Of a stretch of DNA of 39,386 nucleotides, positions 5,113 to 10,225 are shown piece by piece (position 1 is the stretch's first letter; every line of letters starts with the position of its first letter). The notes under the pieces were generated by a model. The model was not told where the DNA came from. It did not search any database and saw only the letters and a list, made by a program, of their open reading frames with translations. Source of the DNA: a virus (Duplodnaviria > Heunggongvirae > Uroviricota > Caudoviricetes); IMG/VR virus record IMGVR_UViG_642979322_000008. The stretch is one strand, 5' to 3'. The translations under genes and the position numbers were made by a program.

Positions 5113-5406
5113 ATGAGCAAAGTACGCGTTATTTTTGAATTTAAGCATGTTTCGCATGACGAAAAACCGGCAGGCAATGACTGTGTTGAAGTGCATGAAA
5201 AGATTGGTGTGGATGTAAAAACAGAACGTGATACGAATAACAGGCCGACGTCACTCTGTGACGTTTATGCAAGTATTCTCCAGTATCACAGCCCTGAAAT
5301 TATTCAGTTTCTCTCAGCGGAATTTCAGGCATCTGTACAGGCTTTTGGGGCGGATGCCATCATTAAACGCCACCGCGTGCATAAAGCATCAGGCACACTG
5401 CAATAA
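5113..5406 (+). CDS. hypothetical early protein, paralog 2 (MSKVRVIFEFK...)
   Basis: ATG at 5113 preceded by AGGGG; N-terminal similarity to 4836-5108. Confidence 0.5.
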   Translation: MSKVRVIFEFKHVSHDEKPAGNDCVEVHEKIGVDVKTERDTNNRPTSLCDVYASILQYHSPEIIQFLSAEFQASVQAFGADAIIKRHRVHKASGTLQ

Positions 5407-5417
5407 GGAAAAACAAA

Positions 5418-5948
5418 ATGGCAAAACGCGTTACAAAATTAAAGGCCGCAGCAGAGGCGGCACCGCAGACCCGTGAAGAGGTCAGCCGCGATATCCGCAC
5501 CCTGGGCGATATTCAGCGAGAGGCGCTGCGCCTGGAAACAGCGATGAATGATGAAGTGGCAGAAATCACCGCCCGTTATACGCCGCAGATTGAAAACCTT
5601 AAAAAAGAAATCAAAGTGCTTTTTAAGGGGATTCAGGACTGGTGCAAAACCAACCGTGATGAGCTGACGAACGGCGGCAAAACCAAAACTGCCAATCTGA
5701 CCACCGGAACGGTGTCATGGCGACTGGGGAATCCATCATGCAGCGTCAGTCGTGATGTGGAAGGTGTGATTGAAATGCTGCGCCGTATGGGCCTTGAGCG
5801 TTTTATCCGCACGAAAGAGGAAGTGAACAAGGAAGCGGTCCTGGCGGAGCCGGATGCGGTGAAAGGGATTGCCGGTATTAAGGTGAATAAAGGCGCTGAA
5901 AGTTTTTATGTCGAGCCTTTTGAACAGGACGCCGGACTGAATAAATAA
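5418..5948 (+). CDS. gam: Gam-like host-nuclease inhibitor (Ku-like DNA-end binding protein)
   Basis: 176-aa ORF; motifs RLETxMND, ANRDELTNGGKxKTANL, SWR, FIRTKxEINKEA and PFEQ match Mu Gam as recalled. Confidence 0.88.
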   Translation: MAKRVTKLKAAAEAAPQTREEVSRDIRTLGDIQREALRLETAMNDEVAEITARYTPQIENLKKEIKVLFKGIQDWCKTNRDELTNGGKTKTANLTTGTVSWRLGNPSCSVSRDVEGVIEMLRRMGLERFIRTKEEVNKEAVLAEPDAVKGIAGIKVNKGAESFYVEPFEQDAGLNK

Positions 5949-6045
5949 CACCGCATTAATCAATTAAATATCACTTCGTTTTAATTATGGCGCTCGCGTC
6001 AGGGGACTGCCTGCGCCTGTAAACTGAAAATAAGGAACAGGATAT

Positions 6046-6588
6046 ATGGCATATTTTTATTTCAAATTAGACCGTGTGCAGACAAATAAATATTTCACCA
6101 AATATCAACAGACTGTTTTACCGCTACGCAACAGTATTCTTCGGGCATTACTGAAAAATACAGGCGCTGCCGGATTGCGCTTAAAGCCGTTTGCCATGGA
6201 CGTAATCAGTGAGTTTTATTTTTCTGGTGCTCTGCCTGCGGGCTGGCGTAAGCGCGATGATGTGGCTTTTATCGGGGACGGACCGTGCTTTATTGCCAGA
6301 CCTGATGAGTCATGCCCTGAAGGTCCGGCGATTGCCGCAATGATTGAAACCGCTGAACGTGAGTTAAGAAAGCGTCCTGATTTCCTTGTCTGGCTCTGTG
6401 AAAAGCTGGGGGTAATGAGAATCCCCTCCATGTTTAACACGGACTCCTGGTGGACCCCGTCGCTCTCCCGTGATGCCCTGTGCGTGGTGTTTAAAGTAGG
6501 CGCTTATGGCAGGGAAATAAAAGGGTGTATTCCTGAAGAATGCCAGGAAATTAAACATTCTGAATATGTGGCGCTGACGGAGGAATAA
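6046..6588 (+). CDS. hypothetical early protein
   Basis: 180-aa ORF after a 97-bp AT-rich spacer; no recognised motif. Confidence 0.5.
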   Translation: MAYFYFKLDRVQTNKYFTKYQQTVLPLRNSILRALLKNTGAAGLRLKPFAMDVISEFYFSGALPAGWRKRDDVAFIGDGPCFIARPDESCPEGPAIAAMIETAERELRKRPDFLVWLCEKLGVMRIPSMFNTDSWWTPSLSRDALCVVFKVGAYGREIKGCIPEECQEIKHSEYVALTEE

Positions 6589-6591
6589 TTC

Positions 6592-7125
6592 ATGATTGAT
6601 GCAAAAGTGCTTGAAGGGGTTAAAAACTGGCTGAGTATTTACGGGCGTCTGACCTGCGGCATTCTGGCTGAAAAAATGAATATGCCGCCATCCTCGATGG
6701 TTTATTTTTTGCGTGATGCGGTCGATGCCGGGGTGCTGACGGAATGTAACGGTTTTTATGATATTCCGCGTCCCCGCCCGGTGCAGCCGGTTCGTCGCAA
6801 ATGCAGCCAGGAAGGTGCGGCTGATGATGTTCAGTGGTGCAGCTTCAGAAAATCCCTGCCGTGGATTGAGGGGCATGATATTCCGTCGATGGCGTGGGAA
6901 TTTGCTCAGGGCGTACTGACCTGCGAAACCGTTTATGTGGTGGTTGAAGTTGATGAGCAGGCCATGAAAGAAGGCGTGCCCCAGTTTGTGATGGCGTATA
7001 TCGACATTCGCCTGGGTGTCATTATCTGCGGTTTAAGCGGCTGGAATATCACCGAACATGTTCTGCGTTACCTGATTGTTGACCGGACGGCTGCACCTGC
7101 CGGGATATCTGCGGAGGTGGCGTAA
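6592..7125 (+). CDS. hypothetical protein with N-terminal winged-helix-like segment
   Basis: 177-aa ORF; LTCGILAEKMNMPPSSMVYFLRDAVDAGVL resembles an HTH. Confidence 0.5.
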   Translation: MIDAKVLEGVKNWLSIYGRLTCGILAEKMNMPPSSMVYFLRDAVDAGVLTECNGFYDIPRPRPVQPVRRKCSQEGAADDVQWCSFRKSLPWIEGHDIPSMAWEFAQGVLTCETVYVVVEVDEQAMKEGVPQFVMAYIDIRLGVIICGLSGWNITEHVLRYLIVDRTAAPAGISAEVA

Positions 7126-7640
7126 TGTTCTTTAAAACATCAAACCCTTCCGCGCTGGCCGCGTGGCAAAAATATCAGCAGGACTGCCAGAAAGTTAAGG
7201 ATGAGGCAAAACGCCTTGAGGCCGTGCTGAATGTTGCGTGCCGGTCGGTATTTGTATCCGGTATCAGTGGCTTTTGTTTTAAAGGGCTGCGCTTTATGGA
7301 TGACAAATATCCTTTTCATCGCGACTTATGGCGAAAACCGACTGCGTCGAATGGCTGGAGCTGCACACCGCGCACATCACGTATTCCCAAAGCCCTGCGC
7401 GTTGCCTCTGACGAACTTAACAGTCTGTGGCGTGAATATTCGCCCGTCACGTATGCCAGAACCGATGCACTGTTGTTCTGGCTGGGTATTGACTTCTCAG
7501 CAATATTGCATGGTCCCGTGAAGTGGTTCTGCGTTGACGATGTTATTTACCTTCAGTGCGAAGATGATTCCGCAAAACGGAAAATGACCGAAATTCTGTC
7601 TGATGAGTTTTATGCTGCCGAAAAGCGAGTCGGGGGGTGA
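7125..7640 (+). CDS. hypothetical early protein
   Basis: 171-aa ORF, start overlaps upstream stop. Confidence 0.45.
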   Translation: MFFKTSNPSALAAWQKYQQDCQKVKDEAKRLEAVLNVACRSVFVSGISGFCFKGLRFMDDKYPFHRDLWRKPTASNGWSCTPRTSRIPKALRVASDELNSLWREYSPVTYARTDALLFWLGIDFSAILHGPVKWFCVDDVIYLQCEDDSAKRKMTEILSDEFYAAEKRVGG

Positions 7641-7643
7641 TGC

Positions 7644-8195
7644 ATGATGAAATTACAACCCATGGGGAGAAAAGGCCGTGCACCCGCTCATGTTCGCGCA
7701 TGGACACCTGAAGAAGATGCGCTGCTGATTGCGCTTTATCCATCCACCCCGGTTAAGGATATTGCTGTCAGGATAAAAAGAAGTTTCTGGGGTGTACATA
7801 ACCGGATTGTTTTATTACGCGGTACTTACCCGGAGTTGCTCAAATGCAAACGCCTCAGATTTAAACCTGATGAAGATAAATTTATCCGAAAAAATGCCAG
7901 GACGATGACCGGTAAGCAAATAGGAGAATATCTGGGGCGAGACCGGGATTCTGTCCACAATCGGGCGCGATATATTGGCGTAAGCATGAAAAAATACGGA
8001 GAATTACTGCCTTTTACCCGCATACCTGACGATGATGTTCATCTTATTCGTGAATTACGGGATGCTGAATCACCACGGCGTCTTACCTTTAGGGAAATCG
8101 GCGAGAAATTTGAATTATCCGAGGGCACGGTGAGTTTTATTTATCACCGTCGTCGGACTGCCGAAGATGTTGTATTACGGGAGTTAACGACATGA
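7644..8195 (+). CDS. hypothetical protein with three tandem Myb/SANT-like HTH repeats
   Basis: Three internal repeats: WTPEEDALLIALY...VHNRI, FKPDEDKFIRKNA...VHNRARYIG, IPDDDVHLIRELR...TVSFIYHRRR. Confidence 0.55.
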   Translation: MMKLQPMGRKGRAPAHVRAWTPEEDALLIALYPSTPVKDIAVRIKRSFWGVHNRIVLLRGTYPELLKCKRLRFKPDEDKFIRKNARTMTGKQIGEYLGRDRDSVHNRARYIGVSMKKYGELLPFTRIPDDDVHLIRELRDAESPRRLTFREIGEKFELSEGTVSFIYHRRRTAEDVVLRELTT

Positions 8196-8377
8196 TAAGG
8201 AGACTTGTTTTTTTCGCAATTATCGTTCCTGTGTGGGGGGTTGGTTTTATATTTGCGGTTACAGGAAATCTGTCCATGATGCCGGATATATGGTTCTTTA
8301 TCAGGATGTCGCTCTTCCTGTTTATTATGAATCTTCTTATCGACATATATATCCGTATTACTGGAAAACATAAATGA
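8192..8377 (+). CDS. small hydrophobic membrane protein (two predicted TM helices)
   Basis: 61-aa ORF, highly hydrophobic; first gene of an AT-rich block. Confidence 0.45.
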   Translation: MIRRLVFFAIIVPVWGVGFIFAVTGNLSMMPDIWFFIRMSLFLFIMNLLIDIYIRITGKHK

Positions 8378-8415
8378 GAAAAATCACGACCTTGTCAGAG
8401 TTACAGGAGATGAAT

Positions 8416-8748
8416 ATGAGTATTGAATTAAGATCGTCTTATGAATATCGTAAAATTCTCATCGCCGGAGGCATGAAACCGGAAGATGCAGAAAAAATCG
8501 TTTCTTTTATGGATAAAGAATGTGACAAACGGGATATGCCAGAAATTATTATGGATGACATGATTCTGGATTCAGCCGTGGCGTTAAGTCCGTTATGGAT
8601 TGTGCATTCTCTTGCTGAAATTGCCAAAGGCACCGATAAACAGGCAGCTGTTGCTGCCCTTCAGACGCTTAATGAAATGCGTATATCTCCACGCCCGACA
8701 TTAATACATATGATTCTGTCCAGCATGGAGGATAAAGCAAATGAATAG
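8416..8748 (+). CDS. hypothetical protein (AT-rich island)
   Basis: ATG at 8416 preceded by AGGAG (track start 8374); acidic 110-aa product. Confidence 0.45.
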   Translation: MSIELRSSYEYRKILIAGGMKPEDAEKIVSFMDKECDKRDMPEIIMDDMILDSAVALSPLWIVHSLAEIAKGTDKQAAVAALQTLNEMRISPRPTLIHMILSSMEDKANE

Positions 8749-8938
8749 TCTACCCGCTGGATGGGCGCGGCCACTAATGGCCAGGAAGCATCATTTTTTT
8801 AAAACAGGCGAAAATATCAGTATATGTGGACGGTGGTTATATCTGGCTCATAATCGCGAGCCGGATACATTTGAAAGCCCTGATGACTGTGCCGAATGCC
8901 GCAGAAGAGTGAATAAGGAGAAAGATAATGGACAATAG
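8741..8938 (+). CDS. hypothetical small protein with possible Cys zinc-ribbon (C..C / CAEC)
   Basis: 65-aa ORF, overlapping starts/stops with neighbours. Confidence 0.4.
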   Translation: MNSLPAGWARPLMARKHHFFKTGENISICGRWLYLAHNREPDTFESPDDCAECRRRVNKEKDNGQ

Positions 8939-9224
8939 TTCTCTGTTGTTCTGGTGCTTATATATCACATCCTTTTTCGGCGCATTTGTTATTACCCGGT
9001 GGTTATGTCGAAAAATCATCTGCTTTTTTGATAAAAGACATCCGGTTGAACGGGCGGCTGATGCGCTCATTCAGCAGGCCATTGTGTTATATAGCGGTGA
9101 GTTTTTCTGCCGGATAACAACCAGAGATGGCTGGCACATAATGATTATTCCACCAACACACCATGCCCGGTGGGATGAGGCAGAAAAGGCTTTCCATGTC
9201 CGTAAAAAGGTAAATACGGTATGA
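8928..9224 (+). CDS. hypothetical protein with N-terminal TM helix
   Basis: 98-aa ORF, hydrophobic N-terminus LLFWCLYITSFFGAFVI. Confidence 0.4.
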   Translation: MDNSSLLFWCLYITSFFGAFVITRWLCRKIICFFDKRHPVERAADALIQQAIVLYSGEFFCRITTRDGWHIMIIPPTHHARWDEAEKAFHVRKKVNTV

Positions 9225-9799: not shown

Positions 9800-10225
9800 A
9801 TGGCAGAAACTCAGATGAGCATGTTTGGTGGTGACAGTGAGCAACTGCACGCCCTTATCGACCGCCTTGATGACATCCCTGATGATGTTCTCAAAAAGAA
9901 CTGGCCGCGGACCCTGTCAGAACTGGTTGAAGTCACCGGCGCAGAACTTCAGCGTCAGGGGATTGAGCCGGTACTGGCCGGTAAACTGGCACGCAAGGTG
10001 GCTGCGGCTCAGGCAGCCTATATGGGCGGACGGGGTTATTACCTGCCGGTCGGGGAATCTCTCTTTGCCGAGCTGCGAAACAATGAGATATTTTCGCGCT
10101 GGGACCGGGGCGAGAAAATTGAATCCCTTCGCCGCCATTACCGGATGTCAGAAACCCAGATTTATACCGTCATACGCGAACAGCGCCGTCTGCATCTGGC
10201 AAGAACGCAACCGCCACTTTTCTGA
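9800..10225 (+). CDS. Mor/C-family transcription activator (middle/late gene activator)
   Basis: 141-aa ORF with C-terminal HTH (ETQIYTVIREQRRL); architecture like Mu Mor and C; only one such gene found. Confidence 0.75.
   Translation: MAETQMSMFGGDSEQLHALIDRLDDIPDDVLKKNWPRTLSELVEVTGAELQRQGIEPVLAGKLARKVAAAQAAYMGGRGYYLPVGESLFAELRNNEIFSRWDRGEKIESLRRHYRMSETQIYTVIREQRRLHLARTQPPLF

Follow-up and report, generated by a model that had tools for sequence, protein, structure and literature searches.

The IMG/VR record IMGVR_UViG_642979322_000008, 39,386 nucleotides in length and hereafter called the window, is a Mu-like transposable prophage of Escherichia coli, in which domain matches identify genes coding for Ner (HTH_35), MuA (Mu-transpos_C and HTH_Tnp_Mu_1), MuB (Phage-MuB_C), Gam, GemA, and Mor. 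Positions 6046 to 7640 hold three consecutive open reading frames (ORF1, ORF2, and ORF3), which an original prediction, made from the letters alone, had described as a block of similarly sized, uncharacterised early genes behind gam and a 97-bp AT-rich spacer. This layout proved exact: the genes encode 180, 177, and 171 amino acids (aa), all three lie on the plus strand, gam ends just before the spacer, and the AT-richness of the spacer is confined to its 5′ half (Table 1). The term uncharacterised is likewise appropriate, as the functions of the Mu semi-essential region are called largely unknown in the literature (PMC3820752; PMC4553209). Among 5426 complete E. coli genomes, 233 contain the 6046–7640 stretch, several of them cattle or O157:H7 isolates, and 214 of these carry it near full length, mostly at 95–100% identity. 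Among deposited phage records, those nearest to the window are Mu-like inserts in Shiga toxin (Stx)-converting phages. RefSeq usually names the three products "hypothetical protein," and the third gene is called "Mu-Gp12 family protein" in one record. Each of the three has a match in PHROG. On the basis of sequence comparison, ORF1 to ORF3 are very probably ordinary components of a Mu-like E. coli prophage, namely the gp11–gp12 segment of the semi-essential early operon plus one extra gene, and they are new members of known families.

Table 1. Features of the gp11–gp12 segment and its immediate surroundings in the window
Feature	Position	Strand	Assignment or basis
gam (Mu Gam/Ku-like DNA-end binding protein)	5418-5948	+	Pfam Phage_Mu_Gam, E 1.5e-41; phrog_491
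Spacer, 97 bp	5949-6045	+	Sequence; 5′ half AT-rich; ORF1 Shine-Dalgarno AAGGA at 3′ end
Stem-loop, ~30 nt	5989-6017	+	GGCGC-TC-GCGTC-AGGG-GAC-T-GC-CT-GCGCC; AT-rich tract before it
ORF1, 180 aa	6046-6588	+	Divergent DUF5420-type by homology; distant gp12 paralog; accessory gene, not in Mu
ORF2, 177 aa, isoelectric point (pI) 4.9	6592-7125	+	Mu gp11 ortholog; constant gene of the module
ORF2 N-terminal domain, aa 1-57	6592-6762	+	Nearly invariant; winged-helix-like topology
ORF2 linker, aa 58-89	6763-6858	+	Variable, Pro/Arg-rich, predicted disordered; alignment A8; predicted local distance difference test score (pLDDT) <50 over residues 50-89
ORF2 Gp11_C domain, aa 90-167	6859-7092	+	Pfam PF25754; β-rich
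ORF3, 171 aa	7125-7640	+	Mu gp12 (formerly E13) ortholog; Pfam Phage_Mu_Gp12
ORF4, 183 aa, basic, pI 10.1	7644-8195	+	phrog_323, E 1e-58

The second and third genes have clear orthologs in phage Mu. ORF2 is 67% identical to Mu gp11 (NP_050615) over its full length and matches phrog_1949 with an expectation value (E) of 9e-106, while ORF3 shares 53% identity with the gp12 proteins of Mu and D108 along 98% of its length and matches phrog_2314 (E 9e-83). A tblastn search with ORF3 against the Mu genome (NC_000929) returned positions 6954-7457 (E 7e-52). The Pfam family Phage_Mu_Gp12 (PF26885) is precomputed in all 46 of 46 ORF3 homologs, through which ORF3 is assigned to the family. Placing the block at the position of Mu gp12–gp15 was therefore correct as to the Mu early region, but the genes that match are gp11 and gp12, and Mu lacks a counterpart of ORF1. 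Clear orthology to characterised Mu proteins with housekeeping roles had also been named in the original prediction as a result that would speak against it; the orthology is indeed clear, yet the Mu orthologs are themselves uncharacterised, so that the idea is not refuted.

The N-terminal domain of ORF2 is followed by a linker and by a Gp11_C domain that scores 136.6 bits (cut-off 27; E 3.5e-40) and covers the whole profile from 1 to 78. The structural model of ORF2, built from a shallow 15-row alignment of cluster members, reached a pLDDT of 55.7, with values of 66–84 over residues 111-160. The topology of the N terminus looks like a winged helix, as originally predicted, and this reading is plausible, although the model that carries it is of low confidence. 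Gp11 was seen only in Muvirus-type phages and prophages of Escherichia, Shigella, Yersinia, Salmonella, and Citrobacter, and a scan of genome contigs with gp11 gave one locus only. A PD-(D/E)xK assignment from the acidic residues of Gp11_C was considered for gp11 and remains unsupported. In the protein clusters, nominally formed at 90% identity, those with gp11 orthologs also hold ORF1-type/DUF5420 proteins, one of which is the representative of cluster 1. Because gp11 and DUF5420 proteins are unrelated in sequence, this co-clustering is probably an artefact, perhaps arising from fused gene calls.

The nearest named relatives of ORF1, at 38–40% identity, are ORF11 of Shigella phage SfMu (DUF5420 family; 40%) and Salmonella proteins annotated as DUF5420. 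ORF1 itself matched no Pfam family even at E<=1, DUF5420 (PF17457) included, and the cluster representative P0001, 99% identical to ORF1, carries no precomputed Pfam domain. In the alignment of the ORF1 family, 18 of the 25 proteins match DUF5420, with a best E of 9e-28. Searching 1.84 billion proteins with a profile built from relatives of ORF1 recovers full-length proteins; the family is a small one, with 27 representatives at E<=1e-3. By transitive homology to these bona fide members, ORF1 is assigned to a branch of DUF5420-type proteins in E. coli, which we call divergent because the Pfam DUF5420 model is not reached. Its structure was predicted with high confidence (pLDDT 94.3; predicted template modeling score, pTM, 0.85), with elements in the order β-α-α-β4-α-α-β3-α, and the model describes an α/β fold of ~175 aa that has no solved relative. 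Foldseek searches of BFVD with this model retrieved only uncharacterised phage proteins, the top three with template modeling (TM) scores of 0.68–0.73.

Comparing the profiles of the two families, it becomes apparent that ORF1 and ORF3 are related to each other. Direct BLASTP between the two proteins was not significant (E 0.49), and alignment by hhalign with a shallow gp12 profile (A3) gave a probability of just 13%. With deeper profiles, in which 25 ORF1/DUF5420 sequences (A2) were aligned against 48 gp12 sequences (A5), the probability rose to 95.5% (E 1.6e-8) over 161 collinear columns. The alignment pairs an N-terminal [YF]FK strand, a central P-x motif, and a C-terminal EI[KL]xSE[FY] helix, while both profiles gave 0.08% probability against gp11 as a negative control. 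At the level of sequence profiles, ORF1 and gp12 are thus distant paralogs, and we propose that DUF5420 and Phage_Mu_Gp12 form one superfamily. Since the match extends over the full length of the profiles, gp12 is implied to share the predicted fold of ORF1, and homology also accounts for the similar sizes of ORF1 and ORF3. According to the authors of the SfMu study, ORF11 of that phage and orf12 of Mu "may be divergent homologues" (PMC4406740), a suggestion that our result supports. The same paper describes Mu orf12 as having no homolog in SfMu (PMC4406740). At positions 7500-7943 of the SfMu genome (L002, NC_027382), we found an unannotated, N-terminally truncated gp12 remnant that is 52% identical to residues 21-168 of ORF3.

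All three are real genes rather than chance ORFs. Full-length homologs of each range from 24 to 99% identity, and comparison with related prophages gave ratios of nonsynonymous to synonymous substitution (dN/dS) of 0.30 for ORF1, 0.17 for ORF2, and 0.19 for ORF3; MuB and gam gave 0.10 and 0.07, respectively. With dN/dS at 0.17–0.30, the three genes are under purifying selection, at a weaker constraint than gam or MuB. A Shine-Dalgarno sequence precedes each of them; the ORF1 stop codon and the ORF2 ATG are separated by 3 nt, the ORF2 stop and ORF3 start overlap in TAATG, and the three cistrons are translationally coupled. Moreover, the GGAGG ribosome-binding site of the next cistron encodes the conserved C terminus of the preceding one, "TEE*" in ORF1 (6577-6594) and "AEVA*" in ORF2 (7112-7127), and the conservation of these C termini may partly reflect this dual constraint of coding and translation initiation. 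An antisense ORF of 170 aa at 6364-6876 on the minus strand, which overlaps ORF1 and ORF2, is unsupported and probably spurious, because the conservation and the selection signal sit on the plus-strand genes.

To describe how the genes are distributed, we surveyed 75 distinct gp11-anchored loci in Mu-like phages and prophages. The arrangement of the window, with an ORF1-type gene, gp11, and gp12, is present in 33 of the 75, and that of Mu, with gp11 and gp12, in 22. An ORF1-type gene with gp11 occurs at seven loci, while one more, SfMu, adds the truncated gp12 remnant to this pair; gp11 stands alone at the remaining 12. The ORF1-type and gp12 genes have therefore been gained and lost independently around a constant gp11, and each is independently dispensable. 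Close E. coli relatives without ORF1 retain a 14-codon mini-ORF (MKYVYIVINNVVGK), seen when L009:1020-1135 (IMGVR_UViG_2617270962_000001) was compared with window positions 5990-6600. It begins with an ORF1-like start and ends in the ribosome-binding site of gp11, a pattern consistent with a scar left where the interior of ORF1 was deleted.

In Mu-like prophages, the module is preceded by Gam or by DUF3164, the latter in a Salmonella/Citrobacter lineage. Intact full-length homologs occur in Escherichia, Salmonella, Citrobacter, Yersinia, Klebsiella, Vibrio, Erwinia, and Aeromonas. Relatives of gp12 are also found in phages with no gp11 match, namely Klebsiella Lastavirus phages and Vibrio siphophages, as well as in lambdoid prophages of Erwinia, Aeromonas, Pseudescherichia, and metagenomes. 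In five of five lambdoid prophages, the early operon holding the gp12 relative also carries exonuclease and single-strand-annealing genes (RNase_T/ExoX; DUF3799, RecT, and RdgC; YqaJ; YqaJ and RecT; and ERF and YqaJ), and DNA methyltransferase genes accompany them in four. N15-like (TelK) prophages have DUF5420 members as well, located two genes downstream of the divergently transcribed repressor. In a prophage of Erwinia sp. E602 (L124:9851-11435), the strand opposite to the gp12 homolog encodes a Kiwa defence pair (KwaA and KwaB) about 2.3 kb downstream of it, apparently inside the same early-left region of the prophage.

The spacer ahead of ORF1 shows striking conservation, and it is 80% identical to the corresponding spacers of Mu and SfMu. 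It had been proposed to hold an internal promoter, a proposal that our search did not bear out; what we found at this place is a conserved stem-loop. A scan for the σ70 consensus (−35/−10 hexamers at 16–18 nt spacing) found no site with at least 9 of 12 matches within 5949-6045, and over 5300-8500 it returned two σ70-like sites against 5.4 expected, non-consensus or activator-dependent promoters being outside the reach of such a scan. No Rfam family matches 5949-6045, and the spacer as a whole has an unremarkable RNA folding energy (z 0.16). The stem-loop was present upstream of the first gene of the module in 48 of 50 distinct upstream sequences, while one of the other two has a single-base variant (L046) and one has none (L113). 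It is kept irrespective of what comes first in the module (an ORF1-type gene, gp11, or the deletion scar) and of whether Gam or DUF3164 lies ahead of it. Pairing was maintained in 90% of cells compared with 29–58% in slid controls, and two stem pairs show compensatory changes that reflect few independent events. A scan for intrinsic terminators found none in the spacer: the stem at 5989-6017 is followed by TGTAAACTGAAAA and, lacking a U-tract, is not an intrinsic terminator. The loop, CAGGGGAC, is invariant at the sequence level, which suggests recognition by a protein. Candidate roles for the element are in mRNA processing or stability, or as a binding site that gp11 might recognise. The window has a single copy of it. 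A partial second copy of its core, GCGTCAGGGGATTGA, lies at 9952-9966 on the plus strand inside mor with 2 mismatches, and this copy is within chance expectation at the 3-mismatch level.

Searches for a biochemical function agreed with the original description of genes without recognisable catalytic motifs. No catalytic-site residue pattern conserved across the ORF1-type and gp12 families was found; NCBIfam gave no matches for ORF1 to ORF3, nor did the defence-system models of PADLOC at E<=1, and sequence and profile searches of the PDB with all three families returned nothing below E 0.18. The "PDxxxxEGK" motif of DUF5420 was considered as a possible PD-(D/E)xK signature and was rejected for ORF1-type and gp12 proteins, because it is not conserved. 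By analogy with Mu, the long early transcript that begins at Pe would include ORF1 to ORF3. The reading that we favour is that ORF1 and gp12 would be non-enzymatic binding proteins produced early in lytic growth and acting as dispensable accessories of host takeover, whose targets may lie in host or phage DNA metabolism, of the recombination, repair, or nuclease type. Gp11 would serve as a DNA-binding or adaptor partner made alongside them.

The basis of this mechanism is the position and neighbourhood of the genes, and taken as a whole it is tentative, possible rather than probable. Several points weigh against it. Full-text literature searches and annotation yielded no functional study of, or target for, Mu gp11, Mu gp12, or DUF5420. 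The neighbourhood association is weak evidence, as temperate phages keep many accessory genes without relation to one another in their early operons. In addition, the fold searches yielded just generic α/β matches and uncharacterised phage proteins, and the poor model of ORF2 leaves both the winged helix and any role of Gp11_C tentative. When the identity of the genes and the mechanism are considered together as the best explanation overall, we judge the chances of its being right or wrong to be about even.

The same arrangement could also be read as an autoregulated anti-defence cassette resembling the anti-CRISPR (acr) and anti-CRISPR-associated (aca) operons, in which ORF1 and gp12 would be diversifying immune inhibitors and gp11 a regulator binding the upstream stem-loop or inverted repeat. 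The presence/absence polymorphism of ORF1-type and gp12 genes in close relatives fits this idea, as do the divergence of two paralogs around a constant helix-turn-helix (HTH)-type gene, the near invariance of both the gp11 N-domain and the upstream element across lineages, the association of the stem-loop with the module behind either Gam or DUF3164, and the location of this early-region module beside an anti-RecBCD gene. However, the spacer has no σ70 promoter consensus, PADLOC has no matches, and dN/dS of 0.17–0.30 gives no whole-gene sign of positive selection. Moreover, gp12 relatives occur in lambdoid, Lastavirus, and Vibrio phages without an adjacent gp11, and the winged-helix assignment is of low confidence. 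We consider the anti-defence cassette unlikely. An extended form of it, to which we give an equally low probability, would treat gp11, the gp12-type paralogs, and the stem-loop as a self-contained mobile early cassette, in which the winged helix of gp11 would recognise the stem-loop or inverted repeat and ORF1 and gp12 would be alternative inhibitors of host DNA-end-processing or nuclease-based immunity. If true, DUF5420 and Phage_Mu_Gp12 would make up a new superfamily of host-nuclease or defence antagonists across Mu-like, lambdoid, N15-like, and some virulent phages.

A role specific to Mu is less probable still. The three proteins might enhance replicative transposition (as the unmapped "arm," amplified replication of Mu, or a related function of the semi-essential region), acting on the transpososome, the replication transition, or target DNA. 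That gp11 was seen only in Muvirus-type transposable phages agrees with this, whereas lambdoid, N15-like, and virulent phages, which do not transpose, commonly carry relatives of gp12 and DUF5420, and thus the function of the family cannot be transposition-specific; 12 of the 75 gp11-anchored loci, furthermore, lack both the ORF1-type gene and gp12. That the genes are decaying or non-functional filler of coincidentally similar size is highly improbable. While they are dispensable in many relatives and constraint is most relaxed on ORF1 (dN/dS 0.30), purifying selection acts on all of them, intact full-length homologs are spread over eight genera from Escherichia to Aeromonas, the ORF1 fold is confidently predicted (pLDDT 94), ribosome-binding sites and coupling are preserved, and the likeness in size of ORF1 and ORF3 is explained by homology.

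Directly downstream, a fourth co-directional gene of similar size, ORF4, had been overlooked in the original prediction. It is related to "D5-like" transcriptional regulators (phrog_323) and to Mu gp9, and its sub-threshold Pfam matches include Sigma70_r4 and other HTH models. In Mu-type loci, the ORF4 homolog lies upstream of gam, whereas in the window it stands in the same gene string as ORF1 to ORF3. Because its Mu relative gp9 sits upstream of gam, the ORF4 gene has been relocated or expanded in this lineage. Positions 8001-9224 form a low-GC block (41.8% over 8001-9000, compared with 49–56% in the flanks) of small ORFs, comprising a 61-aa ORF of very hydrophobic composition (8192-8377), an acidic protein of 124 aa (phrog_1988), a 65-aa ORF that contains Cys, and a 98-aa ORF. 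Pfam gave no match for any of these small ORFs, and the block, which precedes gemA, may have been acquired recently as an accessory segment.

Mu has been studied for decades, and the functions of its semi-essential region are still largely unknown. Homology between DUF5420 and Phage_Mu_Gp12 implies a shared phage-specific fold, so that one structure or functional assay would be instructive for a large number of temperate phages from Enterobacteria, Vibrio, and Aeromonas. To this, our analysis adds a modular layout, with gp11 as its constant core and two paralogs that are each dispensable without the other, and a cis element, the conserved non-coding stem-loop that marks the start of the module. 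The paralogy and the stem-loop are modest additions, which leave the current understanding unchanged and narrow the experiments that would be useful.

Among known systems, the Acr/Aca operons offer a functional analogy: they too combine small, patchily distributed accessory genes, a putative HTH-type gene, and a conserved inverted repeat in an early region. They differ in that the spacer here has no promoter consensus, and we know of no sequence or fold relationship between ORF1 to ORF3 and known Acr or Aca proteins. Mu itself provides the closer comparison. Mu gp11 has the same three-part architecture as ORF2, with nearly invariant N- and C-domains, but follows the gam spacer directly, whereas ORF1 is interposed in the window. 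Likewise, Mu gp12 (NP_050616) has the same length as ORF3 and the same place directly after gp11, although the two have diverged by ~47% in sequence. Its start overlaps the gp11 stop (gp11 at 6424-6954 and gp12 at 6954-7484 in Mu coordinates), as in ORF2 and ORF3. In SfMu, ORF11 (YP_009152197), at 40% identity, occupies the same slot as ORF1 between the gam spacer and gp11; however, gp12 persists there only as a truncated remnant, whereas the window carries both the ORF1-type gene and gp12 intact.

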